From positions 7,824-71,823 of IMG/VR virus record IMGVR_UViG_3300033407_000001: a stretch of DNA of 64,000 nt; one strand, given 5' to 3'. Source of the stretch: a virus. Made by a program: the position numbers and the translations under genes. A model generated the notes under the pieces. It was not told where the DNA came from. It did no database searches and saw only the letters and a list, made by a program, of their open reading frames with translations. The first letter of the stretch is position 1, and every line of letters begins with the position of its first letter. Below are positions 9 to 45,950 of this stretch, in pieces.

Positions 9-740
9 GTCTCGTTATCAAAGCCAACGAGCAAGCTATTTAAAGATGCGCTCGCATTCTGCGGAGGTTAGGTAGTCTCGTCATCAAAGCCAAACGAGCA
101 GGCTTTTAGGATTGGCAGGAGTGATGGCCAAATGCAGACAGCTGCGGTCTCGTTATTAAAGCCAACGAGCAAGCTTTTAAGATCAAATATCTCTGTGGAA
201 ATGTCGTAGAGTGTAGGGTCTCGTTATAAAAGCCGACGAGCAAGCTGTTTAAGCGAGGACCCTTGAGCAAGGCGATGTTGAGCGCATTGTCTCGTTATAA
301 AAGCCAACGAGCAAGCTGTTTAAGTCGTACTCAGGTAGGCACCGTCAACCTGCCAGTAGAGGTCTCGTTATCGAAGCCAACGAGCAAGCTATTAAGTTGG
401 TAGCGTTGCCTGGCTCGGACCGGACCGCAGGACGTCTCGTCATCAAAGCCAAACGAGCAAGCTGTTTAAAGGTGATGTCGTTGATAGCGCAAGGCTTTCG
501 ACTGGCCGTCTCGTTATTTAAGCCAACGAGCAAGCTATTTAAGATCGCTCTTCACCAGTGTGGAGTCTCGTCCTTTAAGCCGACGAGCAAGCTGTTCAAG
601 GAGCACGGGGGCTTCTGGCTCGTTGCCAACTACACCGGTCTCGTTCTTTAAGCCAACGAGCAAGCTGTTCAAGGTGGCGAGTGATGCTGATCAAAGCCAA
701 ACTTGTCTCGTCATCAAAGCCGACGAGCAAGCTATTCAAG
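9..740 (-). CRISPR. Type V CRISPR array, 11 degenerate 35-38 bp repeats and 10 spacers (21-37 bp); probably continues beyond the left edge
   Basis: Repeats start at 9, 75, 147, 218, 289, 362, 434, 508, 565, 638, 705. Plus-strand consensus GTCTCGTYATCAAAGCCRACGAGCAAGCTRTTYAAG; minus strand ends ...GAGAC with hairpin CTCGTY-9nt-RACGAG. Lies 41 bp downstream of the Cas12m-like gene on the same strand. Confidence 0.97.
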
Positions 741-781
741 GGCTATCCTAGAAACTATTCAATTATCAAAGAGTTATGTAG

Positions 782-2803
782 CTAATTTCGAGAGGTGGCT
801 TTTCGGACTCTTTTAGCAGGTTCTGCTGGTCCGATTGTTTCCTGGAAAATCCAATCATATTTAGTATTTACAGCCAATGATGGGATGCCTGACTTCCTCG
901 GGTCACCTGGGGTCTCGAAATCGGGTGGGGTTCCTCCGCCGCTGCGGCAGAGGTTGATAGCAGCATTCGCATCCTGGTCCCAGAAGGCACCGCAATCCGA
1001 GCACCAATGATTGATGGATAGCGCATGATCCCAATCGTTAATCACTCCACATTGATGGCACATAGCAGTTATGTGCTTAGAGTCCAGCGCTTCGAATATC
1101 GCGCCATGGTTTCCGCAGGCGTTATTGATGAGGATCCGCATTTTCCCAGGAGATGCGAGTGAGGCTTGTTTTCTGACGATTTTGCTGTTCAGCTCACCGT
1201 CGAAATTTTCCTTGGTCTTGAATTTTGCGTAATTTGTATTATCGACTACAACCTTGCCATATTCACGGGCAAGGAAGGCAGCAAATTTTCGATATGCGTC
1301 TTTCTTGCGTAGCTGGCAGCGGTACTCGATGCCGCGTGTCCTATTATATGCAGCCTTGTCCAGACTTCGCCAGGTTTCCAGTTCGCCAAACATGGCTTCA
1401 TCGCCATCGAAGCGATTTTTTCTCCAATGAAGAACGAATGACGCTAGCTTACGTTGAGATTCCCAGTTTCTAATCATACTGATGCCGCGCCATCCGGTTA
1501 GCCACTGCGGAAGGCTGTCTTGCTCTTTTTTATGACGAGACAGCCAGACCGCAAAAGACTCTTTAATCTGATTGAGTGCCAGGTCTCGCGCCGCCTGCTT
1601 TATGCACATCGTTTCCATCTTTTTGCTGTATTCACCCTCAAGGATGACTTCGCCGTGGCGACCATCGTCTCCGTACCAGTAGGCTGCGCGGATGTTATTG
1701 TCACCGACTCTTCTCCAGCCCAGATTCACTGCGACGACCCCAGGGCGCTGAACTTCTTTTGCCTTATCCTTGCTTAGAGTCAGTTGCAGGTAAAATCGGT
1801 AGGTGGTGCCTGATCTTTTCTGCACAATCTTGGCCCATTTGATTTTCACATCATCTGGGATACTCCTATGCATTGTAATGGGAAATTCCACCCATATTGG
1901 CTTCATGCGATTGGTTGGCGAAGATCCAACACGTATGCGCACCGTTGTTCGACAGTTTTTGCGCCGGAAGGCCCGGTCTGGGGTGCCATCCGGTCTATTC
2001 TTGGTCCAAGGATTGTCCTCCGGGGTCGAGAACGGTTTTGTGATCTGAAGGAATTTGCTACCACCCCATGCCTGCTCGGCGGTGATACCTTTCTGCAGTT
2101 GGACTGAGACAATACCGTCACCAGACCAATGTTTGAATTTTGGATCTTTCCTTCTCCCAGGAGCATATTGGGCCGCCCTAGCGGCTCTTTCGTTTGCCCC
2201 GTAGGTGCCCCAGCATATCTTATGCTGCTCCCTGAACTCATTGCGTATCCTTTTGATTTCCGCAGCGAGTTTCTTATTGTTGGCCGTTATCTTATCTTCA
2301 ATCTCTGGGCGCTGTTTGATTTCCTCGCGTATATCCTTTCGCTCAGAAGTAGCAACCTTCTTCTTAGCCGTAAGCTTTTTCTTGAGATCTTTTGCTCCCT
2401 TATTGGTCTTGTCGGCCTTGAGGATGGCCTTGAGTGATTTGATTTCTTCGGATAGCTCGTCGATCGTTGAATTCAACTCCTCCATGCGGAGGCTAGGGGC
2501 TTCACCTATGATTTCCCTGTATAGCTTCGTTGAGGCTCGATAGGCCTCAGTGAGCTTGTTCCGATGGTCGTGCCCCAGGCGCAGTTGATAGATGAGAGTG
2601 TGACCATTGCACAGGTCACCATCGGTGTCCTGATTACATTTTGGACAGTCGCTCTCCGGTCCCGCGAATGTCGGTCTCCCAAGGCGGAATTCAATAGTAT
2701 TTTCGACTGTTTTATGGCTTTCGATTTTGCAAATCGAACAGACCTGAATCAGTTCTTTTTTTGGATCTGGATGGTCTCCCCACCTGTGTTGATGTGTAGG
2801 CAT
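782..2803 (-). CDS. cas12m: Type V-M CRISPR effector, Cas12m-like (TnpB-derived; RuvC predicted inactive)
   Basis: RuvC-I VAVNLGWR (Asp replaced by Asn), RuvC-II VVVDNT (Asp for Glu), Zn finger CHQC...CSDC, RuvC-III DQDANAAINL, WGTY and GDGIVSVQLQ motifs, long Lys/Glu coiled-coil REC insertion. These match MmCas12m motifs as recalled (ALHLGWR, VLVDDT, GSGTIAVQLQ). Abuts the array. Confidence 0.85.
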   Translation of the reverse strand: MPTHQHRWGDHPDPKKELIQVCSICKIESHKTVENTIEFRLGRPTFAGPESDCPKCNQDTDGDLCNGHTLIYQLRLGHDHRNKLTEAYRASTKLYREIIGEAPSLRMEELNSTIDELSEEIKSLKAILKADKTNKGAKDLKKKLTAKKKVATSERKDIREEIKQRPEIEDKITANNKKLAAEIKRIRNEFREQHKICWGTYGANERAARAAQYAPGRRKDPKFKHWSGDGIVSVQLQKGITAEQAWGGSKFLQITKPFSTPEDNPWTKNRPDGTPDRAFRRKNCRTTVRIRVGSSPTNRMKPIWVEFPITMHRSIPDDVKIKWAKIVQKRSGTTYRFYLQLTLSKDKAKEVQRPGVVAVNLGWRRVGDNNIRAAYWYGDDGRHGEVILEGEYSKKMETMCIKQAARDLALNQIKESFAVWLSRHKKEQDSLPQWLTGWRGISMIRNWESQRKLASFVLHWRKNRFDGDEAMFGELETWRSLDKAAYNRTRGIEYRCQLRKKDAYRKFAAFLAREYGKVVVDNTNYAKFKTKENFDGELNSKIVRKQASLASPGKMRILINNACGNHGAIFEALDSKHITAMCHQCGVINDWDHALSINHWCSDCGAFWDQDANAAINLCRSGGGTPPDFETPGDPRKSGIPSLAVNTKYDWIFQETIGPAEPAKRVRKATSRN

Positions 2804-3423
2804 TATGCCACCGCCTTAGGCTTAGCAGGAGGCTGGTGACCAACCTCTATGAGTATCGACTCAGCGTAATCACCTATGCTGCTGGGTGGGGTATTGTAGA
2901 AGCCCATCTGGCAGATTTGCCTGAGGCTCTCGACGAGCTTGCTGTACTTCTCCTTGGCAGTTAAATCTCTGTCCTGAGAAAAGAGGATTCCGTTCTGCTT
3001 TGCAGCATTCCTGACAAGAGCAACCTGTGTCTGCTTGGACGGATGGTAGCCATGTTCGGAGCGATATTTCTCGACACTGATCAGTGTCGCTGCATAGATG
3101 GGTACGGCGTGCTTGTGGGCGCTGGCGTTAGCACGCATGATTTTGACGAACTCGCGAACAGCCCCCAGTCCGATGGCAACCATCTCATCATGGGTCATGA
3201 ACTGGTGAGCGGCATGGTAGTACTCGTACTCACTGGATTGAATACCAAAATGTTTGAGGGAAAATTGCCGAAAGGAAGCTGCCCCAGTCGTTCGCCACTC
3301 TTGAGATTCTTCAAGGGTGCGCATTTTACCCCATATTACAAAGAGTTCTGCTCGGCGAGCCTCTATAAGGTTGCGGATTTCTTCTATTTTGACTGTGAGG
3401 GCTTTTGATTTTTTGTCACTCAT
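2803..3423 (-). CDS. Hypothetical protein, probably co-transcribed with cas12m
   Basis: Stop overlaps the cas12m start; start moved to MSDKK (3423) because a TTGACAATT box lies at about 3471-3481. Confidence 0.7.
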   Translation of the reverse strand: MSDKKSKALTVKIEEIRNLIEARRAELFVIWGKMRTLEESQEWRTTGAASFRQFSLKHFGIQSSEYEYYHAAHQFMTHDEMVAIGLGAVREFVKIMRANASAHKHAVPIYAATLISVEKYRSEHGYHPSKQTQVALVRNAAKQNGILFSQDRDLTAKEKYSKLVESLRQICQMGFYNTPPSSIGDYAESILIEVGHQPPAKPKAVA

Positions 3424-3498
3424 ACTGGAACTCTCTTTAAGAGGAGATTCCACGTTCTTATGGGTGCGGTCAATTGTCAAGTCGCCCAATGATTTTGA

Positions 3499-3954
3499 TC
3501 AAGACTGATGCATCGTCGTCTGGAGCAGGTCCAGGGTGATTCCTAGCTCCTCGGCTACAGAGAAGATTTTATCGTCTCGGTAGAATTCAGCGTAAACAAT
3601 GCGCTTCATTCCAGCGTTGGCAATCATCTTGAAGCATGGCCAGCAGGGGCTTGCTGTGGTGTAAAGCATCGCGCTATCAATAGAGGTGCCATTCTTGGCA
3701 GCCTGGATGATGGCATTTTGCTCTGCGTGGATGGTCGCCACACAGTGGTTGTCCTCCATCATGCAGCCGACGCCAGGGTCATCGCAGTGAGGCAAGCCTT
3801 TGATCGATCCATTGTAGCCAGTGGCTAGGATGGACTTGTCGCGGACGATCACAGCACCGACATGCTTACGCGGGCATGTGGCGCGAGTGGCCACGTCTGT
3901 GGCTATGTTCATAAAATAATGATCCCAGGATGCTCTTTCCATGGCCGGGACCAT
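3499..3954 (-). CDS. dCMP deaminase (ComEB/DCTD family)
   Basis: HAEQNA and SPCWPC zinc-binding motifs; RATCPRKHVGAVIV...ATGYNG. Confidence 0.93.
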   Translation of the reverse strand: MVPAMERASWDHYFMNIATDVATRATCPRKHVGAVIVRDKSILATGYNGSIKGLPHCDDPGVGCMMEDNHCVATIHAEQNAIIQAAKNGTSIDSAMLYTTASPCWPCFKMIANAGMKRIVYAEFYRDDKIFSVAEELGITLDLLQTTMHQS

Positions 3955-3975
3955 GACTCAAGGTTTGCCTATTGT

Positions 3976-5040
3976 CTATAGGGCGCCGCCAGCGGATATC
4001 TTTGATTGCTGCTCCAGCCAAAGCTTCTTAGCCCATTCACCCCTGGTGGTGAGTTCATAATGCATAGGATCGACAAAATCGATTGATTCCCATTCTCCCA
4101 TGGCCCGCTTGAAGGCGTCTGTAGAGTTGATCGCCTGATCGTTCTGGTCATATCCAATGCCAAAGTCTCTCACCAAGTGTAGCCACTCCATCCGACCCCA
4201 GTTCATCCCACAGGAGAAGCCAACGGAGATGAAGGCGATGAATAGCTCCAGTGGCATGCTGTCTGGATACACCTCGAAGTATTGCTTGGAGAATGGGAGG
4301 ATCGTATGAATCGGTCCTCGATCAGCGATGTTAGGGGTGCAAGGTATCCATTTGATCTTACCGTTGATCTTCACCTTGCGTTGCCACTTGTGATGCTTGG
4401 AGACGCCACGATTCATCTCCATGTTCTGATCAAATGCAAAAGCCCATGAGTGATAGCTCAGTGGATTGGATTTGTTATGGCGGATGTGTCGAGGGGAATA
4501 GGCGCCAATTTTGGTCAGGTAGCTGAGGACTTTGTAGACTATGCCCATGATGGAAGAGGTTCGCGCCTCCAACTCCTCACAACGAGATAGACCCTCCCGG
4601 AAGTAGATGCCGGCCCGATTCTCCATATACAGACGAGGCCTGTCGTTGTTCCAATTGCCGGGCAGATTCTCGTGTACCTTCAGGTTGGCCTTCGGGAATT
4701 GCTTGTTGCCGGTGTCGTTTGATGGTCGTCCGTAGACGCCATAGACACTGAGTTCACCCTCCTTTGGGTAGCGGCGGGACGGAAGGGCATCCAGGGGGCC
4801 GTCAAATGGCCTGTAGAGGACCTCCATCATCAGATCCCATCTCAGCTTCCATTCGGATGGCTCCGGCTCAGAGGGCTCCACAGGAGGCGCAGGAGTGACC
4901 ACCTCCCCAGAAGCCTCGGTTGGTGGGCTTTCCACGGGAACCTTTTCAGGAAGGACCGGTATGTCCTCTTCGGTTGGCTTCTGCGGGTTCTCGATAGCAC
5001 CGAAGATCTTAAGTATCAGGTTCCATATGGCTGCGATCAT
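3976..5040 (-). CDS. M15-family Zn peptidase (endolysin-like) with Pro/Glu-rich N-terminal linker
   Basis: R...SYHSWAFAFD and DPMHYE motifs of M15 peptidases. Confidence 0.7.
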   Translation of the reverse strand: MIAAIWNLILKIFGAIENPQKPTEEDIPVLPEKVPVESPPTEASGEVVTPAPPVEPSEPEPSEWKLRWDLMMEVLYRPFDGPLDALPSRRYPKEGELSVYGVYGRPSNDTGNKQFPKANLKVHENLPGNWNNDRPRLYMENRAGIYFREGLSRCEELEARTSSIMGIVYKVLSYLTKIGAYSPRHIRHNKSNPLSYHSWAFAFDQNMEMNRGVSKHHKWQRKVKINGKIKWIPCTPNIADRGPIHTILPFSKQYFEVYPDSMPLELFIAFISVGFSCGMNWGRMEWLHLVRDFGIGYDQNDQAINSTDAFKRAMGEWESIDFVDPMHYELTTRGEWAKKLWLEQQSKISAGGAL

Positions 5041-5254: not shown

Positions 5255-5290
5255 AGTGAAAAGCCTGCTTGATGGCTTAGAAATCAAGAC
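5255..5290 (+). CRISPR. Solitary variant CRISPR repeat (unit A)
   Basis: AGTGAAAAGCCTGCTTGATGGCTTAGAAATCAAGAC; last 31 nt identical to 33075-33105 (minus) and 23/31 identical to the array consensus with a compensated stem; extended -10 TGGTAACGT at 5242-5250. Confidence 0.7.
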
Positions 5291-5304: not shown

Positions 5305-5838
5305 TCACTTGGGGCTAATCATCATTGTCATGACGCGGTTTTCATACCGAGCAGCCCTCTCTAGTTTCGCTATGTCTACCAGCTCAACCATGATCTTGTC
5401 CAATATGGCCTTGCCAACCTCCGGGTGAGCGTTCTCACGTCCCCGAAATCTAACCTCAAATTGGACTTTGTTCCCTTCTTCTAGGAACTTGCGGGCATGC
5501 TTGGATTTGAAGGCAATATCGTGAACGTCAGTCTTAGGTCTGAGCTTAATCTGCTTCAGCTCAACCTTGGTCTGGTTCTTTTTGGCAACGTTTTTGCGCT
5601 TTTTCTCTGCATATAAGAATTTACCGTAGTCTATGATCTTGCAGACAGGCGGCCTAACCTCTGGAGATATCTCAACTAGATCCATCTCCATCTCTTCAGC
5701 CTTAGCTAGCGCTTCGGCGATGGGCATGATCCCCTGTTGCGTACCATCCGCAAGAACAACACGTACAGAGGACACTCTGATGCTTTTGTTCATGCGTGGA
5801 CCCATTGGCTTCTTGGGTCGCCTCTCGTTACCTCTCAT
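5305..5838 (-). CDS. infC: Translation initiation factor IF-3
   Basis: MNKSIR..VRVV, DLVEISP...PPVCKIIDYGKFLY, KQIKLRPKTDVHD, FLEEGNKV..EVRFRGRE. Confidence 0.97.
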   Translation of the reverse strand: MRGNERRPKKPMGPRMNKSIRVSSVRVVLADGTQQGIMPIAEALAKAEEMEMDLVEISPEVRPPVCKIIDYGKFLYAEKKRKNVAKKNQTKVELKQIKLRPKTDVHDIAFKSKHARKFLEEGNKVQFEVRFRGRENAHPEVGKAILDKIMVELVDIAKLERAARYENRVMTMMISPK

Positions 5839-6074: not shown

Positions 6075-6076
6075 AG

Positions 6077-33019: not shown

Positions 33020-33184
33020 CAATTGTCAAGCTGGCCTAGGGTAGGTCGAGGGCGGAGTTGATTTTCTCTTCCTTGTCTTGATTTCTAAGCCATCAAGCAG
33101 GCTTTGCAGCTATTTATTGCTGAATGCTGCAATTGTCAAGCTGGCCTAGAGTAGGTCGATGGCGAAGTTAATTCGCTCTTCTTT
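33020..33184. repeat. Imperfect 55-bp direct repeat (33020-33074 and 33130-33184) bracketing solitary repeat unit B
   Basis: 48/55 identity at a 110-bp offset; each copy contains TTGACAATT; copy 2 encodes the recombinase C-terminus. Confidence 0.9.
33075..33110 (-). CRISPR. Solitary variant CRISPR repeat (unit B)
   Basis: GCTGCAAAGCCTGCTTGATGGCTTAGAAATCAAGAC; 33/36 identical to unit A; TTGACA (33134-33139)-N17-TAAATA directly upstream. Confidence 0.75.
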
Positions 33185-33718
33185 GAAACTCAGGTATTGG
33201 GATGTGGAGGTAATCCACTTGTGCCCAAGTGCTCCTTGGAGCTGCTTCAGATCACCATCAAGGAGGTCATGCATTCGATCGGCAAAGGTCTTGCGCATGC
33301 AGTGAGTCCCGAGAGTTCCGGTCATACCGATAGATTTAAATGCCTTATCGAAGATCCGCCACACCTGAACTCGTGATATCCTCTTGTGGGCGGTTGAGCA
33401 GAATAGAGGAGTCTCCCCCACACACCCTCCTATCTCCTCGATCCAAGCAGCAAGGGCAACCTTAGCCTTGGAGTTCAGCTTGACCGTCCTCCCCTCCCCC
33501 TTGCCTTTCATGGCAGACCGTCTTACAGAGACGGTATCGACAATTCGATCGAACTGAAATACATCAGACACATTGAGGGATAGAAGCTCACTGATGCGAA
33601 ATCCAGTCATCAAGCCGACCGTGAATAGGCAGGCATTCCTAACTCCATTGCTTCCGCAGTGGAGAGTCGCAGTAACCAATTCCGATTCCTGCTTTGTCAA
33701 TGGCCTGCATCCCTTCAT
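33146..33718 (-). CDS. Small tyrosine recombinase (catalytic domain only)
   Basis: RNACLF...TGFRISELLSL, HCMRKTF, LGHKWITSTSQY (R-H-R-H-Y catalytic set); class-B promoter. Confidence 0.92.
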   Translation of the reverse strand: MKGCRPLTKQESELVTATLHCGSNGVRNACLFTVGLMTGFRISELLSLNVSDVFQFDRIVDTVSVRRSAMKGKGEGRTVKLNSKAKVALAAWIEEIGGCVGETPLFCSTAHKRISRVQVWRIFDKAFKSIGMTGTLGTHCMRKTFADRMHDLLDGDLKQLQGALGHKWITSTSQYLSFKEERINFAIDLL

Positions 33719-36060: not shown

Positions 36061-36143
36061 AATCTAAGTATCAAGTCCTATATCCCGATTGTCAATGTAT
36101 GAGAATACGAGGCATTAAGCATTTGCCTTGGCCATCGGTTTCC

Positions 36144-36407
36144 TCAGTCCTGAGCCGGATCACACCAGTCGCAGCCCGGTTCAGTACATGGTTCAGGCGT
36201 ATAGTGATCGAGTCTGGCAAATGCCTCTGCGATTGCCTCCTTGCGCCACTCAGATTCGCCGATATCATAGTGCTCGCAGTAATAGTGAAGACCGTCTTCC
36301 AGCTTCATTCCTGGTGGTGTTTGTACATAGATGATGCAGGCAACCCTGTCATCTTCGACTTCGAGCCCGAGCTTGGCTGCTGCTCGTCTTAATTTGTCGA
36401 GTCTCAT
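36144..36407 (-). CDS. Hypothetical protein
   Basis: Class-B promoter. Confidence 0.75.
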   Translation of the reverse strand: MRLDKLRRAAAKLGLEVEDDRVACIIYVQTPPGMKLEDGLHYYCEHYDIGESEWRKEAIAEAFARLDHYTPEPCTEPGCDWCDPAQD

Positions 36408-36744
36408 ATTAAATAAACACCTCAGCTCACGTAGAATTTCACCATTTGGTGCGCAAGCGCTTGCGTTACTAACCTATATAGGAATTATAAAGTTCTCAGC
36501 CGGGTTCTTGGGATGGCATTGAGTGCATCGATCATGTCGAAAGCATCTTGCCCGTCGTGCCAGCGTTCTATGACAATCGATATGACCGTCTTAATTTGAT
36601 CGTAGTCATGATCGTCAATGGATATCCAAGGCTCTGAGGTTGGCCAATACTTTTGAGGCAGGGGCGCAGCTATGTATCCCTGGGCTCCGCATATGCAAAC
36701 GAGATGCTCGCAGCGATAGCAGCACATTGCTTTCCCAGGGTGGT

Positions 36745-37164
36745 TCATCGGCGGTTCCTGGCCTTTGCCTGGCGGATGGCCTTACGCTCTGCCTTGCTTG
36801 GTAGGTGCTCCCGAGACGCAAGGGTTGCCTTTATATTGTTGATCATGGTGTCGATGGTGAGCCTGGTCTCGGCGACACACTGCCTCATGCCATCATCTTC
36901 GACCCATCGCTCGCCGAAGTCCTCGACGAGCCTTCTAATCCTGGCATTCAGCCTGGATTCCTCCTTGCGGTACTCCTGAAGCCACCTAAGTAATGATCTG
37001 GTGTCGATGCACTCGTACATGTAGAGGTTCCCTCTGGACTGGTCAGCTATCCTCATCTTTGCTGTTAACTTCAATGATCGATTGGCGGCAAAGACGGCAT
37101 GATAGATCTGCTCCAGGTGTTCTCGTACGTCTGTCAATACTGCCGCTTTCCGGACGGTGAGCAA
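36745..37164 (-). CDS. Hypothetical protein
   Basis: Tiling ORF. Confidence 0.55.
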   Translation of the reverse strand: MLTVRKAAVLTDVREHLEQIYHAVFAANRSLKLTAKMRIADQSRGNLYMYECIDTRSLLRWLQEYRKEESRLNARIRRLVEDFGERWVEDDGMRQCVAETRLTIDTMINNIKATLASREHLPSKAERKAIRQAKARNRR

Positions 37165-37441
37165 TCTCTACCATCCCATTCGCATTCTTGGCCTAACACA
37201 TGACACCAGTTGCCACACCTTGAGCAGACGAAGCTATATGCGGCCAGTGGCTTCTCGTACTCCTTGACCTCCTGCCATGCTTCCAGCTTGATCTTCTCTG
37301 AGTCCACGGAGCCATGCTGAGCCCCATGGCGCTTGCTGAGCACCTCTACGGCGAGCGACCCATTCCTATAGCGCCTCACGAGCCGCACCCTTTGGATAGA
37401 CCCATTCAGTCTAACTTTGATGTACTCGTTGCCCATACTCA

Positions 37442-37660
37442 TTATCCATTGTCAGGGTAGCGGGCGACTTTCTCCAGTAGACGTAGAATGCCTTTCTTGG
37501 TTGGCTCGAAGCTGATCTCCTCGGCAATCTCTGCCAATTCACCAGTGTAGAGTTCTGGCTCATTCTTGGCGTCCTGGACAGCCTCCTTCTTCGAGGCGAA
37601 CCAGCGAAAGCCAATCGAGCATTCGAAGTCGAGGTAGAGATGGTTTCTGTAGAGCTTCAC
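37442..37660 (-). CDS. Hypothetical protein
   Basis: Downstream of a class-A-like box at about 37700. Confidence 0.6.
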   Translation of the reverse strand: MKLYRNHLYLDFECSIGFRWFASKKEAVQDAKNEPELYTGELAEIAEEISFEPTKKGILRLLEKVARYPDNG

Positions 37661-37700
37661 TTGGTCACACTCACCATTTCAGACCTATATTCATCAATTG

Positions 37701-38060
37701 TCAATGTCGCGACTCATGGAGTCTCTCTGATTCCAGGTTCATGGTCAGGAGTAGCCGTCTCATGCTCCAGTAGAGCTTCTTGTCCGCCAAGAATCCTTCT
37801 AGGATCTTGCAGAGAGTGTCAACTTGATCCCCGCTCAGGGTAGATGGCGACGGGGTCTCGTCGGCCATGGCATTGCTCATCCGCCTCTGTAGCCGATAGA
37901 GGAAACCGACCTCAGTCGAGGCATGTTGGCAACGCCCGTCGTAATGCTCCCTGGAGCACGTCATCATGTTCTCTACCTCCTCTGTGGTAAAGGTGACATT
38001 GGCGTAGACCTCGTAGGTGAATGGGCTCTCAGTCATCGCCCAACCTGAGGCGCCGTTCAA
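37701..38060 (-). CDS. Hypothetical protein
   Basis: Tiling ORF. Confidence 0.55.
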   Translation of the reverse strand: MNGASGWAMTESPFTYEVYANVTFTTEEVENMMTCSREHYDGRCQHASTEVGFLYRLQRRMSNAMADETPSPSTLSGDQVDTLCKILEGFLADKKLYWSMRRLLLTMNLESERLHESRH

Positions 38061-38186
38061 GATCAGTCAGGCGCCGAATCGCCTCCCTGTTTGCGGCCTT
38101 GCATGCCGGGTCATCGGTGAGGTCGATGTTGCGCTGGCAATATTTGATAACATTGGAAAAGTATTTCTGCTCAGCTTCGCTCATGC

Positions 38187-38591
38187 TTAGTAAACACCTG
38201 AGGAGCTACAGAATTTCAGGAGTCGCGACTCAAACCTCCTGCCAGCCTGAAATGCTTTGAGTTCTGCTTCCGTGCAGTAGCAGGTGAAGTTGTACCAAGC
38301 GCCGCATGGACATATGGGATTGGGGTTCTTAGTACATTCCGGGCAGGACTTCCTTGGTCCACAGTCACAGGGATCATCATCGGGGCTGGCAGGAACGGTG
38401 TAGACGGCCTCTTCGCCGAGGATATCCAATGGCTGCATCCCTAGAGAAAAGTGAGTAACCATGGCTGTGCAATCACCTCTTCTCGCATGACGATAAGAGG
38501 TCAAGACATGACCGGAAACCTGCCGAAGTATCACATCCTCGTTGCAGACCCTGCACCTGTAGGGGCTCCTGTGTTTGTCAGGATGGGTCAT
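38187..38591 (-). CDS. Cys-rich hypothetical protein
   Basis: Tiling ORF. Confidence 0.5.
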   Translation of the reverse strand: MTHPDKHRSPYRCRVCNEDVILRQVSGHVLTSYRHARRGDCTAMVTHFSLGMQPLDILGEEAVYTVPASPDDDPCDCGPRKSCPECTKNPNPICPCGAWYNFTCYCTEAELKAFQAGRRFESRLLKFCSSSGVY

Positions 38592-38811
38592 GGTTTTGAC
38601 TCGTTGATTAGGATTTCTAAGACCTTGCCCAGGATATAATCGTGCATGCCTTTTGGGCGTATATTTTCGCGATGAGTGTTGATGGTCTCTACGGCGAGCT
38701 TCACTCTTGCATGAAGATCTCTGGCATCTAGCTGTCGAATGTACAGACAGCTGTCGCAGTAGTCGGGCTCAGCATCGTGGCTGCAAAAGTCAAAACCATC
38801 TCGCTTTTCGC

Positions 38812-39285
38812 TCATGCCATCATCATTTCCCTGCCAGTAGGCCAGGAGTCAAGGCAGTCTTGGCAAAGCTTGTTAAACGGCGCGTAGATATCACCCCAAT
38901 GCTTTCCAGCCTCTTCGCTTCCAAAGTTCCAGGTGAACCCCTCTTCGTTGCACATGGAGATTGCCTCCTTCAAGCATTCCTTACTTCCTTCGATAACGGC
39001 TTTGATTCCTAAGTTGAAGGCGATGCCAGATTGCACGTACCAGTCGCCCTCAAGGTACGTCCCGTGGGTCTCTTGGACTCGTCGCATTTCCAAAGTCATC
39101 TCGGTGATGAAGTGAAATCGACGGTCTTGCTCCTTTCGGTCCTGGTTGGTCCATGAATTTTTGAACCTGGCAATGCCTTGGGATGTGAGCCAGTCTGTCA
39201 TGGTCATCCCTGAGCCACAGAAGTCGTCGCTGGCCGGGTTGAGCCATCCGAGGAGATCTTTCTTCTTTGGGCTGTCGCTACTCAT
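38812..39285 (-). CDS. Hypothetical protein
   Basis: Start moved to MSSDSP. Confidence 0.55.
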   Translation of the reverse strand: MSSDSPKKKDLLGWLNPASDDFCGSGMTMTDWLTSQGIARFKNSWTNQDRKEQDRRFHFITEMTLEMRRVQETHGTYLEGDWYVQSGIAFNLGIKAVIEGSKECLKEAISMCNEEGFTWNFGSEEAGKHWGDIYAPFNKLCQDCLDSWPTGREMMMA

Positions 39286-39607
39286 TGGTAGCGGCCTCTG
39301 GCGACATGACCAGGGACGTATCTTTGCCAATATTGATGATGTCTGAGATCTTAAGCAATGGATCTTCACCGGGGAGCGGGACATACCGACCGGTGCGAAG
39401 GTCATCGCAGTATTCCTTGACCAATTCCAATAGGCCCAGACGACTCTCGGATATGGTCTTATCGTCATTAGCCTGATACCCAGCCTCAAACCAGGACCAT
39501 GCTGTCTCCTTCGCTTCCAGAGAATAGGTACGACCCTCCATCTCCTTCTCAAAGGCCATTCCGGCAGGTGTTTTATGTATTGCGTCCCAATCAGTATAAT
39601 CAGTCAT
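39278..39607 (-). CDS. Hypothetical protein
   Basis: Class-A promoter places the start at MTDYT. Confidence 0.7.
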   Translation of the reverse strand: MTDYTDWDAIHKTPAGMAFEKEMEGRTYSLEAKETAWSWFEAGYQANDDKTISESRLGLLELVKEYCDDLRTGRYVPLPGEDPLLKISDIINIGKDTSLVMSPEAATNE

Positions 39608-39639
39608 AGTAGCTATCTCATGGCATATATCGTCAATTG

Positions 39640-39861
39640 TCAAGGTCGCGACCTGAGTCGCTGGATGACAGTGGCAAACCATTGCTTCTTAGTCGGAACT
39701 TGATGCGGCCTACTATTGGACGCACAGTCAGTGCAGAGGGCGACATCCTTTGGCGTATACCAGTGGGCAGTCAGCCTCATGCAGATAGCACATGGCTCAC
39801 GATCACAAGGGTCTTCGCACTTTGGATTTACGATGATTCTGAGAGACATACATCTGGCCAT
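39640..39861 (-). CDS. Small Cys-rich protein
   Basis: Tiling ORF. Confidence 0.5.
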   Translation of the reverse strand: MARCMSLRIIVNPKCEDPCDREPCAICMRLTAHWYTPKDVALCTDCASNSRPHQVPTKKQWFATVIQRLRSRP

Positions 39862-40274
39862 TACCGGCGGTTGTAGTGCTCATCTTTTAGAGCTTTCAGA
39901 TCAGCCTTCCTGGTCCGTATTTCAGCATTGAGCGTATCAAATACCATGGCACCAATTGACCCCTTGCTATTAAGCGCCGCCCCCATTGCAGATACAAAAA
40001 GGCTGCGCTTGGTCTGCGAGCAATCAACTAGACGCTTTGGTTCATCCCACTTCTGGTTAATAGAATCGAACTCATGGCTGATCAGATCCCAGTCTGGCTG
40101 TCCATTCCTTTCTTTCGGCATGCGTCCCCAGAATACAGCCGACGTGAGCTGGATTTTCACTTGTGGGTCATACGAGGACAGCTCGCATCGCATCTCGTTG
40201 ATTACTGAATTGATTTGATTGTTGAGTTCACCGAGATCTTTCTTCAGTTCCTCAATCTGTTCTTTCATAACCAT
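39861..40274 (-). CDS. Hypothetical protein
   Basis: Tiling ORF. Confidence 0.55.
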   Translation of the reverse strand: MVMKEQIEELKKDLGELNNQINSVINEMRCELSSYDPQVKIQLTSAVFWGRMPKERNGQPDWDLISHEFDSINQKWDEPKRLVDCSQTKRSLFVSAMGAALNSKGSIGAMVFDTLNAEIRTRKADLKALKDEHYNRR

Positions 40275-40599
40275 GTCAGATATCCCTTATGAATCGACCT
40301 GGATCGGAGAAGATCTCAGCCATGAGCAGGAGCGTCCTGGCGTCGATGTCACGTCGCTCCTGATCGATAATGGGCCAGAGCAGTGGTGGTTTCAGGCGAT
40401 TCATTGCTTCCTCCTGTGGCACTCTCCGCATAGTCTGCGGCAAGCTGATTCTGGGTAGCCAGGTGCTCGTATCTTCCATGATGACCCTGGTGCGGCTCGC
40501 GCTCCACAGATGGCGCACAGCGTAATGTTACGCTCAGGATCAAGCGTCACCTTAGCCTTTGCCTCTTCTAGGACCATAGCTAGCTCATCCAAGGCACTC

Positions 40600-40860
40600 T
40601 CAGCGCTGCGGCCCATAGGCTTGGCCTTCACTGGGAACCAGGCCCGTCTTTGAGTGCTCCATGACATCTGCGAGAGAGAATGTACCACTGCCGACGAGCA
40701 TTCCCTGGCAGAAGCCAAGCCATCGCATGGCCTTCGAGATGTCCCCATCCTCTGGAAATCTGTCTCGTATGGTGAAGAGAAGATATAGCTTATCCTCACC
40801 ATGTTCATTGGCTATCGCCTGGTATTGCTTGATGAGGTCAAGAGCGGTATCCCTGGTCAT
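40600..40860 (-). CDS. Phage hypothetical protein (KAMRWLGFCQG motif)
   Basis: Class-A promoter places the start at MTRDT. Confidence 0.7.
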   Translation of the reverse strand: MTRDTALDLIKQYQAIANEHGEDKLYLLFTIRDRFPEDGDISKAMRWLGFCQGMLVGSGTFSLADVMEHSKTGLVPSEGQAYGPQR

Positions 40861-40925
40861 GACTACGACTTGAAGGCATATATCGCCAATTGTCAAGGTC
40901 GCGACCTGCGCAAGCGCTTGCGTGA

Positions 40926-41282
40926 CTATTGTCTTCGATGTGGTCCGCCAGCGGCCTCTAAGGTTAGCCATAGTCCCACGGCAGCCTTGTTCCCAAGTCG
41001 ATGAGAGACCTGGACATCGTATTTCTCGGTAAGGGCCCCAAGAACCTCCAGAGGGATCAGGTAGCGACCCTTTGATGTCCAGAGAATCGGATCGAGTATG
41101 TCGGATGGGATGACTTCTCGCCCGAGGTGGTTAAATCCCATGACAAGGATATGCTCCTCTTCCATACATGATTCGCAGGGGATCTCCTGTTGGTCAGCCC
41201 CAGATGCCACAGGACAGTCGCTTTTCCCATACTTGCATCCATGCCGAAGGCAGCAGTGTTCTATGTGGGGCATGGTCCCCAT
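40926..41282 (-). CDS. Hypothetical protein (HCCLRHGCKYG motif)
   Basis: Tiling ORF. Confidence 0.6.
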   Translation of the reverse strand: MGTMPHIEHCCLRHGCKYGKSDCPVASGADQQEIPCESCMEEEHILVMGFNHLGREVIPSDILDPILWTSKGRYLIPLEVLGALTEKYDVQVSHRLGNKAAVGLWLTLEAAGGPHRRQ

Positions 41283-41453
41283 ACCCTCTTATGGAGAATG
41301 TCGAGGATCAAGGCAGATGGCCTGGGAGGATCTACAATCCGATAGTGACTCTTACAGGATTCACAGAAGAGGTAGGGGAGAATCCATGCCGTGGTGCAGT
41401 CGTATCGTTCCCTTGGCAAATAGCCGAGGGTCCAGACGCAGTCGCGATTTAAC

Positions 41454-41768
41454 CTATATTTCTTCATTGTCAAGGTCCGGGGCCTCCCGGAGCACGATGA
41501 TCTTGTATGCCTGATCAATAACGGAATCTATGGCCACGAGAACAGCTGGACCATTTACGGCGAGTTCATGGGCAATGTCGTCATCTTCGTAAGCACAAGT
41601 GATGCTCACGTTGGGGAGGCCAGGATGAACATTGAGCATCTCCATCTCGAAAGCCCCGCCGCCATCAATAGCAGCATGGGCCTTTTCCTCGATTTCTGGA
41701 GGACGTTCGATGGACTGGGGAGATTTACGTCCGTGAGGCATCAAGTATTGGGTGAATACGATAGACAT
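41454..41768 (-). CDS. Hypothetical protein
   Basis: Class-A promoter places the start at MSIVFTQY. Confidence 0.7.
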   Translation of the reverse strand: MSIVFTQYLMPHGRKSPQSIERPPEIEEKAHAAIDGGGAFEMEMLNVHPGLPNVSITCAYEDDDIAHELAVNGPAVLVAIDSVIDQAYKIIVLREAPDLDNEEI

Positions 41769-41940
41769 GGCTCCGACTTCAGGACATATATCGTCAATTG
41801 TCAAGAGTGCGACTGCTCTTCGTACTCTTCGTACTCTTCGTCTGCCAGTTGACACAGGCAGTCGTCGCAGAAGGTCTCATCTGGGTCAGTCATTTGCGCA
41901 TCGCACCGCTCACACAGCTGTGGTTGTGGCAAGGTTGCCA

Positions 41941-42180
41941 TCAGGTCTTATCTAGCGTTTTCAGGCTATGCTTCATGAATTTACCGATGCCAGGGGCGGA
42001 GACCAGCATCTCCATGATCACCTCAACCCCGTGACCTTCGGCCAGCGCGGCGTCCATTCCCCGGAGGATGCAGGAATATCGGTTAGCTAGGATCATGTCG
42101 TTTCGACGGCAGTCAAGACAGGTGCTGATTTCATCGGTGCAGCCGCAGATGTCGCATGGGTCGGCAGAGCTTCGTGTCAT
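41941..42180 (-). CDS. Small Cys-rich protein
   Basis: Tiling ORF. Confidence 0.5.
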   Translation of the reverse strand: MTRSSADPCDICGCTDEISTCLDCRRNDMILANRYSCILRGMDAALAEGHGVEVIMEMLVSAPGIGKFMKHSLKTLDKT

Positions 42181-42189
42181 CGGTTAGCC

Positions 42190-42732
42190 TCAGGCTGTTT
42201 CATAGTAGCTAGGTCCATTGGTGCCCTGCTTCTCAAACCATCTATGGATCACATCATAGTGCAGGGAGAAAGCGAACTCATCTTTTAGCCCTTCAGATCC
42301 GTAGATGATACCTCTCTCTGAGACTTCCTCGTTGGGCTTGAATGGAGGGAGCGAGTAGTCCACGTCGATGCCATCGGCTTCACCGAAGAGAAGGATACGG
42401 TTTGGCCTGGGTTTGGTTGAAGAGATCCAGAAGGGGACTATGTTGCTTACCGATAGCCCTGTCTCTTCTCGAACCTCACGGATACCTGCCTGCACCCAAG
42501 GCTCATCCCTATCAACAAATCCTCCTGGAAGCGCTAACTTACCCTTTCCAGGCTCAATGCCACGGCGCACCGTGAGAAGTCCAAGTCCACGCACACTCGG
42601 CAGGGGTACCAGTACAACGGTAACTGGTACCGGGTTCTCCCAGACGATGAAACCGCAGGAAAGACAGGAGGGATGAAGGGAGCCATCTGGTGCATGGATG
42701 GTCCCGCATTTTGGGCAAAAGCTTCGTGTCAT
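42190..42732 (-). CDS. Nudix hydrolase with N-terminal Zn ribbon
   Basis: FCPKCG...CLSCG..WENP; LPGGFVDRDE...REVREETG; class-A promoter. Confidence 0.92.
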   Translation of the reverse strand: MTRSFCPKCGTIHAPDGSLHPSCLSCGFIVWENPVPVTVVLVPLPSVRGLGLLTVRRGIEPGKGKLALPGGFVDRDEPWVQAGIREVREETGLSVSNIVPFWISSTKPRPNRILLFGEADGIDVDYSLPPFKPNEEVSERGIIYGSEGLKDEFAFSLHYDVIHRWFEKQGTNGPSYYETA

Positions 42733-42758
42733 TGATTTAGACTTCAAGACATATATCT

Positions 42759-42995
42759 TCAATTGTCAAGGAGCCGACACTTTTCCTCATGGAGCCTAGC
42801 GAGTTCACGTCGATGACGAGTAATGTCATCGTCCCGTTGTCGGCAGCGGGTGCAATAGAAAATATTTCCCTCTGGTAATAGTTTATGACTGTAGGTCACA
42901 TCTCCACAGGAGAGAGTTATCAGGTAGAGGCCAGTCTTAACCTTCCCCTGCTTCTTGATCGTTTGCCCGTAGTTGGTTCTTGTTTTGAAACCCAT
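42759..42995 (-). CDS. Hypothetical protein
   Basis: Class-A promoter; start MGFKTR. Confidence 0.55.
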   Translation of the reverse strand: MGFKTRTNYGQTIKKQGKVKTGLYLITLSCGDVTYSHKLLPEGNIFYCTRCRQRDDDITRHRRELARLHEEKCRLLDN

Positions 42996-43039
42996 AAATG
43001 GAATCCTCGACATATATCTGCAATTGTCAATGTCGCGGC

Positions 43040-43336
43040 TCAGATGGCCAATACACAGAACTGATGATGCTTCTCGGCGGGCCATGGCTCATCCTCTGGA
43101 CCCTTGGCCTGCGTCCCGCAGATACCGCATCGCGTGAAGCGATAAGGTTTATCTGGGCTCCACCCCATGTCATTTGGATCTACCTCTGGATAGTGAGTGC
43201 GACGAAGAATAGCCTGCTCGCGGACCAGATCTAGCTTCGCTGATAGGTTTTTCACCTCCAGCAAGAGGGCGTTCCGCTCCTCGATTATTGCCAAAGCATT
43301 GTCTACCTGCACATCATCTAGCTTCACTGAGATCAC
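43040..43336 (-). CDS. Hypothetical protein
   Basis: Tiling ORF. Confidence 0.55.
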   Translation of the reverse strand: MISVKLDDVQVDNALAIIEERNALLLEVKNLSAKLDLVREQAILRRTHYPEVDPNDMGWSPDKPYRFTRCGICGTQAKGPEDEPWPAEKHHQFCVLAI

Positions 43337-43536
43337 TCCCTATTGCTGGCTTTTGCCTTCTCAGCGGCAGCCATCAAAGCTCTCCCAAGCCTCTCAGCCT
43401 CGACAGGGGTCAGCATAATGTCTTCAATGAAGTCATTATGCTGCCAGATGGTCACCAGTGGTCTACCCGTAAATGCATCATGAGTTGCATCTACGATGAT
43501 TTCCGGGTTATGCCGACATTTGATGCTCTTGCCCAT
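43333..43536 (-). CDS. Hypothetical protein
   Basis: Class-A promoter; start MGKSIK. Confidence 0.65.
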   Translation of the reverse strand: MGKSIKCRHNPEIIVDATHDAFTGRPLVTIWQHNDFIEDIMLTPVEAERLGRALMAAAEKAKASNRE

Positions 43537-43568
43537 ACTGTTCACTTCAAGACATATATCTTCAATTG

Positions 43569-43877
43569 TCAAGGTCGCGGATGGTCATCTTCACTATGAT
43601 CCACAGGACCACAGCAGTTCAGGGCTGAACACTGAAAACCACCAGGTGAAGTAACCAGGCGGTCAACTACTTCTCTCTTTCCACAAATATTAAGCAAAAC
43701 ACTCTCCAGAGAGATGCTGAGTGCGAATGGTAGAAGCAGTAGACATCTTGAGGCTAGGCTAGGAAGTGTTTCCATGTACTCATTTTCGATTTTTTCGATA
43801 ATGACGTGTTCGTACCGGCAGTCGCAGACTGAATCTCCTACTTTCAGGGACATCACCCAGTCCAGTCGTTCACTCAT
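43569..43877 (-). CDS. Hypothetical protein
   Basis: Tiling ORF. Confidence 0.55.
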   Translation of the reverse strand: MSERLDWVMSLKVGDSVCDCRYEHVIIEKIENEYMETLPSLASRCLLLLPFALSISLESVLLNICGKREVVDRLVTSPGGFQCSALNCCGPVDHSEDDHPRP

Positions 43878-44131
43878 CAGCTGAGATTGTCACTCTGCTC
43901 TGTGAGCCAGGGAATAATCTTGTCGATTTCCCCTGGCGCCTGGTGCGAGGTGAAGACATCGAAGCCACCCATTTCGTAGACGAGGAAGATCACTGGCAAT
44001 TGGCCAACGAGCCAGCACTCCGCCATGTGGTCTGGTCCTCGAACGTTTGATTGCCAAAGGCAGCGAGACTCTGCAGCCAGCAGAAGCTTCTCGAATTGTT
44101 CCCATTGTTGATTTGGTTTCTTTTTCTTCAT
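43877..44131 (-). CDS. Hypothetical protein
   Basis: Tandem class-A plus class-B promoter. Confidence 0.75.
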   Translation of the reverse strand: MKKKKPNQQWEQFEKLLLAAESRCLWQSNVRGPDHMAECWLVGQLPVIFLVYEMGGFDVFTSHQAPGEIDKIIPWLTEQSDNLS

Positions 44132-44194
44132 ATCCAGTAAACACTTCAGCTCTCGTGGAATTTCACCTATATCTCACAATTGTCAACGGCGCGG

Positions 44195-44404
44195 CTATGT
44201 TCCCCATCCAGGAAACAACTTCTTGGCTATCCCTTCCAGGTGCTGTGCGTGTGATAGGTGCCAGTCGAGTTGGCTTTGCGTGATTTCCCCGGCAACATGG
44301 GATAAGCGGGCCTCTTCACGATGCTTTGTGATTGCCTCCCGAAGAAGTGACGCGAGGTTTTCGCGTTCAAAGTCGTCTAGCTCATTCATCTTCACCCATT
44401 GCAC
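44195..44404 (-). CDS. Hypothetical protein
   Basis: Tiling ORF. Confidence 0.5.
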   Translation of the reverse strand: MQWVKMNELDDFERENLASLLREAITKHREEARLSHVAGEITQSQLDWHLSHAQHLEGIAKKLFPGWGT

Positions 44405-44588
44405 GCTCGTAGGCGATCACCGCCTCATAGAGGCTCGTGGTCTTGAAGCCCATGGCAGCAACCTTTGCGCAGAGGGAGTCAGGGCCAGAGAATGGAAGCA
44501 TGCCTTCGGCGCAGTCCTTGATGAGGGACCCGATGGTGTCGTTCCTGGGTACAAGGATGAGTTGCGGATCACTACTGTTTGATTGCAT
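44382..44588 (-). CDS. Hypothetical protein
   Basis: Class-A promoter. Confidence 0.6.
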   Translation of the reverse strand: MQSNSSDPQLILVPRNDTIGSLIKDCAEGMLPFSGPDSLCAKVAAMGFKTTSLYEAVIAYERAMGEDE

Positions 44589-44618
44589 GCCTCACTTCAA
44601 GACATATATCTGCAATTG

Positions 44619-44891
44619 TCAAGGGCGCGGTTTAAGGTTATCATCGAAGAAAACAAGCCATTGGTCCCTGGAGAGACCAGTAGCTAAGGTGAGAGGAGCC
44701 TTCGCCCATGCAACCATAATGAGGTCACAGAGTATCTCGTCGGAGGTTGTTTCCATGACGTTGAAGAAGTAGGGGCGGTCACCGCTGAACTCTTCGGCCA
44801 ATTCGTTGATGGCATCCTGGGTAGCGCAGCACTCCAGCTCGCTTTTGCCAATGAGTCTCGTAAGGAAGTTCTGTGTGATTTGTCGTTCCAT
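44619..44891 (-). CDS. Hypothetical protein
   Basis: Tandem class-A plus class-B promoter; start MERQI. Confidence 0.7.
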   Translation of the reverse strand: MERQITQNFLTRLIGKSELECCATQDAINELAEEFSGDRPYFFNVMETTSDEILCDLIMVAWAKAPLTLATGLSRDQWLVFFDDNLKPRP

Positions 44892-45057
44892 ATTCAGTAA
44901 ACACCTGAGGCCCCGTACAATTTCACCTATATTTAGCAATTATCAAGGGCGCGGGTAGATGGAACTAAAAAAGAAACCTCTGAAAGATTACCTAACCCCA
45001 ATAGAAGATCAGAAGAAGAACCAAAGGAAGAAGGAAAAGCAAAACCACTGCTGTCAC

Positions 45058-45093
45058 GTCTCGTAATCAAAGCCAACGAGCAAGCTTGTTCAG
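45058..45093 (-). CRISPR. Solitary CRISPR repeat of the array type (unit C)
   Basis: Plus strand GTCTCGTAATCAAAGCCAACGAGCAAGCTTGTTCAG, 28/29 identical to array repeat 1; TTGACA (45136-45141)-N17-TGTAGT upstream; no second repeat nearby. Confidence 0.88.
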
Positions 45094-45950
45094 AAAGACA
45101 CTTCGTCAAAGAACTACATCACCTGCTATTTCCATTGTCAATATTTCTAAGGGTGCAGTATCGCGAGGGCTTAGTATGAAAGTATTTTCCTGGACAATAG
45201 CAGATGATGTATTAAGGGGGAATTGTCCATAAAATCGATCCCTTGATCCATTGGCAGATGATCTGGTAATCATAAGGGGTGATGATGAAAATACTTTCAT
45301 GGTTGATTTTGTAACACTGGGTAATTGCTGGAGTTAGGTGGTTGGATATAGTGGGAGGATCTGCTTTCGGCCTCCCTCGCCGGGGCAAAAAAGTTCACAA
45401 AAGATCGAACGCAAATGGACGCAAGTGCAGGAAAACTCCTGAGTTTTCCGAATTTCTCACTGTTCAGGGGAGGGTCAAAAGCTAACGCAAACGAGCCCTG
45501 CATTGTCAAAGCGATTGTCAAGGCAGGGCTCGGATCAGGAAAACTCCTGAGTTTTCCTTATGTATCAGGGAGGTAGTGGTTAGGTTATGGTCTCGTCCCA
45601 GACTGCCCCGTGTTGGCTCCAGGGTAGACAAGCGTCTGAGTTTTCTCTAGGCCCCTACGAGGAAAACTCAAGCCATCACCACTGCTTACCTCTGGGCGCT
45701 CGTCCAGCTCCTTCTTTTTCCTCTTGCCAGCAGCGACTAGATCTCTACCTTCAGCTATAAGCTTCCTGAACATAGCTTGAGTATACCATGAACCCCCAAA
45801 TGGGTGTACCTTGACAATGCAGATCTGATCTCATCCTGAAAAGTTCAAATCCTCGGGGTTTTTCTAACTAACTACCTGAAATGTCGTCATTGACAATTGC
45901 TCGGATTACCAATAATCCACCCTTTCTCTACTATATAAAAACAGATACTT

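Follow-up and report, generated by a model that had tools for sequence, protein, structure and literature searches.

A 64,000-nucleotide stretch of viral DNA (termed here the window; bases 7824-71823 of the 199,636-bp IMG/VR virus record IMGVR_UViG_3300033407_000001, whose estimated completeness is 92%) carries a CRISPR system in which a homologue of the effector Cas12m lies beside a long array, and in which single copies of the array's repeat (termed here solos) are scattered far from that locus. The source is a huge soil phage. Across the whole record there are five such solos, each of which differs from the array consensus at base-paired positions only by changes that preserve pairing. The interpretation favoured here, which is held tentatively and short of conviction, is that the solos are hard-wired CRISPR RNA (crRNA)-like RNAs for the phage's own Cas12m. 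What is new is a virus-encoded, predicted non-cutting Cas12m with cognate dispersed single-repeat units; a literature search found no paper describing a virus Cas12m with cognate dispersed single repeats.

The gene that an initial annotation of this DNA had called Cas12m-like (window 782-2803, minus strand) does encode a Cas12m homologue of 673 amino acids (P0001), as judged by its PDB matches, its Pfam domain and an alignment of its RuvC motifs. In phmmer searches of the PDB, residues 70-619 match the solved Cas12m 23vw at E 9.3e-56, followed by 8pm4 (GoCas12m; 9e-38), 8hio (Cas12m2; 2.4e-30) and 23vu (2.8e-18), the homology taking in the WED, REC, RuvC and TNB domains; TnpB and Cas12f are reached weakly, through the zinc-finger end and at E > 5e-4 only, and Pfam places a Cas12f1-like TNB domain on the protein. 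The RuvC triad, read from alignments to the solved Cas12m proteins plus four metagenomic relatives, is N-D-D (N in VAVNLGWR, D in VVVDNT and D in DQDANAAINL). Cas12m orthologues with D-E-D, H-D-D and N-D-D triads bind double-stranded DNA with a flanking protospacer-adjacent motif (PAM) without cutting it, and their processing of pre-crRNA is independent of RuvC (PMC11013384); by its N-D-D triad P0001 is predicted to be a DNA binder rather than a cutter, as the annotation had supposed. The record contains no further Cas12/TnpB-like gene, so that the solos have no other cognate protein there, and a search of the record for cas1 found none. The type V-M system at this locus is borne by a phage and lacks adaptation genes. 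The P0001 protein is also recorded on a second contig of 286.8 kb.

A sister phage (L010) encodes a 53%-identical Cas12m (P0002) in the same locus gene order, with syntenic IF3, amidase and deaminase genes and with a 17-repeat array whose repeat is very similar. P0001 and P0002 alone share a Cys-rich N-terminal insertion of about 50 amino acids (P0001 residues 20-70; window 2600-2803, minus strand; CxxC ... CxxC ... C), which is absent in the other Cas12m relatives and in the solved structures. Immediately upstream of cas12m is a gene of about 206 codons (2803-3423, minus strand) that is 65% identical in amino acid sequence to a gene at the same position in the sister phage and that has no Pfam, PHROG or Atlas family; it probably shares an operon with cas12m and may encode an accessory protein of P0001's Cas12m clade.

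The array lies downstream of and co-directional with cas12m, beginning 42 nt past its stop codon. Eleven repeats with a period of about 72 are indeed in the window (9-740, minus strand), as first annotated, but the window edge truncates the array, which in the complete record has 35 repeats (genome 6122-8563). The repeats are 35-37 nt long and the spacers 16-41 nt, mostly 35-37; the repeats are strongly heterogeneous, with a mean column identity of 88% and a 3' half of the loop that varies freely. The RNA sense is assigned to the minus strand because wobble pairs work there: the closing pair at positions 20-30 is U-A, U-G or C-G, where the plus strand would give C.A. On the minus strand the repeat has its hairpin at the 3' end, followed by AC and then the spacer, like other type V arrays. 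A TTGATAATTG motif (760-769, minus strand) is a candidate leader promoter: 17 nt downstream of it comes a hexamer that adjoins the first array repeat. No anti-repeat (trans-activating crRNA) was found, the only repeat-like matches on the opposite strand of the record being two solos (A and E, below) far from the locus.

The 36-nt repeat folds into a 6-bp stem and a 5-bp pseudoknot, in which 5' AAGCY pairs with loop RGCUU; this fold matches the stem-plus-pseudoknot scaffold published for Cas12m crRNA. In an alignment (A1) of 50 units, namely the 35 array repeats, 11 repeats of the sister phage and 4 solos, 98% of the stem cells are paired, three of the six stem pairs change on both sides, and the pseudoknot pair 11-21 (UG 32, CG 8, UA 7) is never unpaired. 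Taken together, effector, array and scaffold all agree with type V-M at the level of sequence.

To inventory the solos, a covariance model (R2) was trained on the 35 array repeats only and run over both strands of the whole 199.6-kb record (400 kb), a check that the annotation itself had proposed. Beyond the array it recovers exactly five units, at 25.9-40.3 bits (E 1e-10 to 6e-6), and the next best match scores 14.3 bits. These are A (window 5255-5290, plus strand; 29.3 bits), B (33075-33110, minus strand; 26.4 bits), C (45058-45093, minus strand; 40.3 bits), D (genome 126481-126516, minus strand, outside the window; 25.9 bits) and E (52244-52279, plus strand; 35.3 bits), the last of which was also recovered by another model, R1, at 34.4 bits though it was outside the R1 training set. 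The three solitary repeats annotated at the outset, A, B and C, are real, but the count was incomplete, since E (in the window) and D (outside it) have to be added. Each of the five stands alone with no partner repeat nearby, as had been stated; in their order along the record (A, B, C, E, D) they lie 4.5, 32, 44, 51 and 118 kb from the array, a spread of about 120 kb.

The proposed homology between solos and array repeat holds up through compensatory change: in all five units, and across three stem variants, every difference from the array consensus at a paired position keeps stem and pseudoknot intact. The variant shared by A, B and D has CTTGAT/ATCAAG in place of CTCGTT/AACGAG, a swap of two stem base pairs, and a C-G pseudoknot pair that improves on U-G; in E the stem is of a third kind, CTCGCT/GGCGAG, and the pseudoknot contains a G-U; the repeat of C is of the array type. 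Because all of these changes keep pairing, selection appears to act on the RNA fold, which argues for the solos being selected RNA handles and not decay products; that they are selected Cas12m scaffolds seems secure. Over a 31-nt core A and B are identical, and a single loop base sets D apart. Because A and B agree even in the loop half that is free to vary in the array, their variant seems to have been copied recently. Whichever reading of the solos holds, the three variants show which scaffold positions tolerate change.

The solos differ in their surroundings. The octamer TTGACAAT occurs 58 times in the genome where 6 would be expected, in most cases 35-45 nt ahead of a start codon, and on these statistics of the genome's own motifs it is taken as a promoter-associated motif of the phage. 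It stands upstream of the cas12m operon (window 3480), of B (33139), of C (45141) and of the cluster of tRNA-like RNAs in which D sits (genome 127032); ahead of the cas12m operon the TTGACA of the TTGACAATTG promoter-associated motif occupies 3475-3480 (minus strand; genome 11303). The earlier claims that every solo has a candidate promoter and is a separately promoted guide unit stand in part: B and C share the motif of cas12m and C has a terminator as well, but A has at best, by eye, a weak extended -10. At B the upstream element TTGACA-N17-TAAATA (33111-33139, minus strand) abuts the repeat in a geometry like that of the array leader, and a start about 7 nt past the second hexamer would yield an RNA beginning at the mature scaffold. 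C is preceded by TTGACA-N17-TGTAGT (45113-45141, minus strand) and is followed by a candidate guide and terminator (44965-45057, minus strand), that is, by a 30-nt unique sequence, an imperfect hairpin (45027-44977) and a U-run (44976-44965); because the unit ends in hairpin and U-run, C looks like a stand-alone small-RNA gene. TTGACAAT(TG) sites are found at window 3480, 8818, 10802, 33029, 33139, 36095-45141 and elsewhere, with almost no leader before ATG.

B is followed by a sequence, X (33020-33074, minus strand), that consists of a diverged copy of an integrase 3' end and the next TTGACAATTG motif. Its partner X' (33130-33185, minus strand) comprises the final 13 codons of the integrase gene (33146-33718) and TTGACAATTG, and the two form a direct repeat (D18) that is 88% identical over 56 nt. 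A is antisense to the infC-peptidase operon and ends 14 nt from the infC stop codon; its reverse complement lies within the mRNA of that operon and was scored as a weak terminator-like site, and the fold leaves the strand of A undecided because all its pairs are Watson-Crick. E is sense to a plus-strand gene block, 84 nt before a DUF932-like gene, and is flanked by a terminator-like hairpin and by the promoter and ribosome-binding-site (RBS) cassette of the next gene.

Two observations at single units may be added. The stretch just after C (45034-45057, minus strand) also has a GTG from which a very hydrophobic peptide (MTAVVLLFLLPLVLLLIFYWG) could be read in a frame of 21 codons; this frame lacks a ribosome-binding site and may just reflect pyrimidine-rich composition. 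About 150 nt downstream of D, inside the same tRNA-like cluster, is an inverted copy of the D hairpin and of the first 11 nt downstream of it (genome 126325-126365; L014:2326-2366), its loop disrupted by an insertion; the copy could pair with D in one transcript.

In the mechanism proposed, cas12m, the small conserved gene and the 35-unit array would all be transcribed along the minus strand, starting at a TTGACAAT-type promoter region, and the phage's own Cas12m would bind the five solos as extra copies of its crRNA scaffold. Wherever a solo is transcribed with upstream sequence, Cas12m would trim the 5' side, and the roughly 20 nt after the repeat would serve as a fixed guide; these separately expressed guides would send the non-cutting Cas12m to a few constant targets, in host genes or rival phages, and the target of B may be the end of the integrase gene of sister phages. 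Transcription of the solos, their binding and processing by Cas12m, their use as guides and all of their targets are what we infer. This account is favoured because the sole cognate protein is the phage's own Cas12m, because B and C have the motif of the cas12m operon, because C and a solo of the sister phage look like closed small-RNA genes, and because rapid turnover fits arms-race elements.

The turnover is seen in related phages. Conservation there, whose lack the annotation had set beforehand as one of its refuting conditions, is not seen at syntenic sites. A contig from the sister-phage sample does have a solo of its own at a different site, consisting of scaffold, 19 nt and a terminator hairpin; it separates two terminator hairpins that in this phage lie side by side (window 57960-58110). 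Specifically, A is absent at the infC site of the sister phage; B is absent in a same-sample contig with a 92%-identical integrase, where the integrase leads straight to the promoter motif and the next gene; and E is absent in four relatives with the DUF932-like gene, the intergenic layout being otherwise kept. Because the solos are missing from syntenic sites while the sister phage has one elsewhere, they turn over quickly between close relatives.

These absences weigh against the guide interpretation, and so do a number of further results. The TTN-flanked targets that the initial annotation expected for the sequences after the solos were not found, with or without TTN, in the phage, its relatives, INPHARED or IMG/VR. 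A comparison of the 35 spacers, and of the 40-45 nt after each solo, with the whole record gave chance matches of at most 19 nt, B's neighbour excepted; PAM-proximal seeds of spacers and solo guides reach 9-12 nt in the record, and the longest PAM-proximal exact matches of the five solo guides reach 9-10 nt, both at chance level and, for the solo guides, with none at the cas12m promoter. In 122 kb of related phage sequence there is no protospacer for either solo guides or array spacers; the array's lone match among the 50,697 phage records of INPHARED (30 nt, 90%, E 0.8) is read as chance; and the exact guides of B (degenerate), C and E have 0 matches in IMG/VR. Because no protospacer was found, no PAM can be deduced. 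The 30-nt sequence after C has no match elsewhere, and the spacers of the sister array have nothing in common with those of the phage and no match in its genome. None of the eight integrase alleles sampled matches the guide of B perfectly. What follows the repeat is the infC end at A, the copy of the integrase end at B, a tRNA-like arm at D and, at E, what is left of a promoter/RBS cassette; these belong to neighbouring elements and are not clearly dedicated spacers. A generic sigma-70 scanner called no promoter at A, B, C or E, though it misses TTGACAAT sites because their second hexamers are poor (TGAAGT, TGAGAT); E has no recognisable promoter, and A likewise no clear one. Finally, a sequencing-run search returned two runs containing the stretch, both of them soil DNA metagenomes and 0 of them RNA.

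The exception in these target searches is B. X is homologous to the integrase end from the very first base past the repeat, and the integrase site is preceded by TTC, a Phe codon that is also a TTN PAM; TTN is the PAM of MmCas12m and GoCas12m. The best fit is to the integrase allele of a sister phage (L066), which agrees with the B guide at 18/20 and 21/24 positions, has its first mismatch at position 12 and is TTC-flanked; the phage's own allele, likewise TTC-flanked, agrees at 15/20 with a mismatch at position 3. The idea that the phage's own allele is specially mutated to escape B was rejected, since its 15/20 falls among the 14-18/20 of eight relatives. The B-integrase homology would be compatible with a guide directed against rival phages, and it would fit a recombination scar equally well.

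A fuller version of the guide interpretation, which should be regarded as speculative and somewhat unlikely in all its parts, is a small natural CRISPR interference (CRISPRi) regulon, in which Cas12m is fed by the array plus dispersed single-repeat guide genes that are expressed on their own and whose scaffold variants covary, B being aimed at the sister integrase end and D being processed by way of the tRNA-like cluster. In such a regulon the position-3 mismatch between B and the phage's own integrase allele would fall within the PAM-proximal stretch.

Among the alternatives to guides, the one that survives best, though it is rather improbable, is that the solos are cis-acting Cas12m binding or processing sites in phage mRNAs with no DNA target at all: Cas12m would cut upstream of the handle and stay on the new 5' end, altering the stability or translation of the message. 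Four of the five solos (B, C, D and E) are in the sense of local transcription, D within a co-transcribed tRNA-like cluster, yet this proportion (p about 0.19) is not significant alone, and A is antisense to its operon. On three unrelated metagenomic contigs with solos of their own (L029, L040 and L036) an RBS and start codon lie 1-25 nt past the handle, directly so in L029 and L040, and as a DNA guide such an RBS-adjacent stretch would match only its own PAM-less locus; in the phage, however, the next start codons are 81-165 nt off rather than adjacent, and the hairpin and U-run of C end that unit before any gene is reached. Positions that are not conserved in relatives with 72-92% identical neighbouring proteins would also be odd for core regulation, and such an activity is not known for Cas12m. 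A slim chance is left for some explanation beyond those considered here.

It is distinctly unlikely that the solos are decoys, strongly expressed mimics of the repeat that soak up the Cas12m of a host or rival phage, or that buffer the phage's own. Viral solitary repeats behind promoters are known RNA anti-CRISPRs, including ones against type V-A (PMC10651486); the layout of putative promoter, repeat and terminator in C and in the sister-phage solo is of this kind, the nearly identical repeat of the sister phages means that a decoy would cross-react, and missing targets are what decoys predict. Against this, the phage encodes the cognate effector, so that its own 35-guide array would be blunted too, and no host Cas12m is known. 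Moreover, a search pattern that admitted the stem of A, B and D retrieved no array with it from 241 million metagenome records or from about 186,000 species at one genome each: in these genome and metagenome scans the variant occurs in solos only.

An equally slender prospect is that the solos are functionless by-products, either of illegitimate recombination at a repeated promoter motif or as survivors of decayed mini-arrays. The fast gain and loss between sister phages is consistent with this, as are the position of B within a 110-bp duplication of the integrase end and promoter motif, the identity of A and B in the freely varying loop half, which suggests recent copying, and a Thermomicrobiaceae contig (L063) in which the solo comes after a decayed repeat that has the same spacer. 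What speaks against by-products is that all stem and pseudoknot base pairs are kept in five of five units, that E and the A/B/D variant differ from the array by pair-preserving changes only, and that there are no half-decayed copies between 26 and 14 bits, bar the inverted, disrupted copy beside D.

The known systems with which these findings may be compared are of several kinds. The type V-M reference set comprises MmCas12m2, GoCas12m and MsCas12m (Wu 2022; Omura 2023, PMC10442227; Bigelyte 2024, PMC11013384). The phage shares with it a homologous effector, an N-D-D triad as in two characterised non-cutting orthologues, a co-oriented array, and a short repeat-derived scaffold of stem plus pseudoknot with no anti-repeat found; it differs in being phage-borne, in an effector about 70 amino acids longer with the Cys-rich N-terminal insertion, in heterogeneous repeats, in having no cas1, and in the five cognate solitary repeats far from the locus. 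There is one earlier report of a Cas12m and its array in a phage, a myxophage preprint (bioRxiv 10.64898/2026.09.14.751636): MvCas12m of myxophage MV-1 likewise lies beside its array, with neither adaptation genes nor protospacers found, but it is 610 amino acids long, its triad is D-E-D, its array has 8 spacers, and solitary repeats are not mentioned.

The solos themselves resemble two classes of single-repeat unit but fail defining features of both, because the phage encodes its own effector, because they are far from the cas locus, and because they match no cas or toxin promoter. Like the Racr units (Camara-Wilpert 2023, PMC10651486), they are single repeats in a virus genome, B and C following the putative promoter motif and C having a terminator-like end; the known Racr units, however, mimic host repeats and occur in elements without cas genes (PMC10651486), whereas this phage supplies its own matching effector along with a long array, and no array is known for one of its repeat variants. 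Like CreA, CreR and Cracr (bioRxiv 10.1101/2023.03.10.532045; 10.1101/2024.10.29.618823), they would be degenerate single-repeat units that make an effector repress fixed targets; such units, however, either adjoin the cas operon or commandeer the effector of a host, and part of their sequence is complementary to the promoter of a cas or toxin gene, whereas the solos of the phage are 4.5 to 118 kb off and have no seed match at the cas12m promoter or elsewhere in the phage.

A further class, the TldR proteins (Wiegand 2024), reportedly consists of nuclease-dead, TnpB-like, RNA-guided repressors in prophages, RuvC-family proteins encoded by mobile elements that act as transcription factors with a fixed guide; they are said to use one long omega-RNA beside the gene and to have neither a CRISPR array nor dispersed units.

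Solitary CRISPR repeats in viruses have so far been known as mimics that hijack or jam host Cas proteins; here one virus owns both a DNA-binding effector and lone repeats kept foldable by compensatory changes. Should the solos be guides, the virus would encode a programmable repressor whose guides are hard-wired, nature's equivalent of engineered Cas12m CRISPRi, and the system would suggest compact guide-gene designs consisting of promoter, 30-nt scaffold, 20-nt guide and terminator. If the phage's own messages are instead the substrate, Cas12m would have an undescribed role at the RNA level.

Scans of metagenomes turned up further solos on other contigs. L036 lies directly behind a TTGACA promoter-like sequence (by eye), L026 consists of handle, 29 nt and a strong terminator, and L034 is found just past a tRNA-like 3' end. 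On one short contig (L050:110-220) the 22 nt after the scaffold equal codons 4-11 of a divergent gene, 88 nt upstream, that encodes a very basic 41-amino-acid protein; solo and gene could be a local regulatory pair or a duplication. A 115-kb contig (SDBT01000083.1; L021, L048, L049) encodes a 31%-identical Cas12m and has mini-arrays 15 and 68 kb from that gene, with 28-nt repeats and 15-24-nt spacers, some of them duplicated. A search of IMG/VR for close relatives found neither repeat type, and the general handle pattern gave a weak, probably coding match in two viral records only. Single scan matches set aside, mostly as coding-sequence coincidences, are L016, L017, L019, L023, L024, L028, L031, L032 and L035, and likewise L037-L039, L041, L043, L045, L052-L059, L061 and L062.

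Another scan match, L018, was at first taken for a solo flanked by duplications; this was rejected, as it is a spacer in another CRISPR array. That array (Ga0255342_1149767; L018:1-1002) has 14 copies of a 36-nt repeat starting GTTTCCGTGG and ending ATTGAAGC, and the spacer (L018:893-927, minus strand) equals a complete Cas12m scaffold of the phage's handle family. Because it does, some host appears to have gained a spacer that targets a related Cas12m array by its repeat, which is multicopy in each phage.

The neighbours of the locus encode IF3, a dCMP deaminase and an SNF2 helicase. The phage IF3 gene (window 5305-5838, minus strand) is full-length, with both Pfam domains present; it gave no useful pointer for host assignment, and an Rfam search of the window returned 0 matches. 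More than 35 copies of a 38-57-nt cassette, CTGAAATTC-N13-GAGGTGTTTAC-N5-ATG, stand on start codons (window 47503-62877, plus strand; 17571-63967, minus strand) and form back-to-back pairs at divergent genes (families D1-D6); this cassette is probably a second class of phage promoter plus ribosome-binding site. At gene ends, often behind a GC-rich hairpin, are GGAAAACTC-N3-GAGTTTTCC hairpins (52157-52183, 55249-55275, 56966-56992, 58050-58076, 59070-59096, 60208-60234, 62462-62488 and 63731-63757), a family that is kept in the relatives L044, L068, L071 and L073 and whose members are probably terminators or protein-binding sites.

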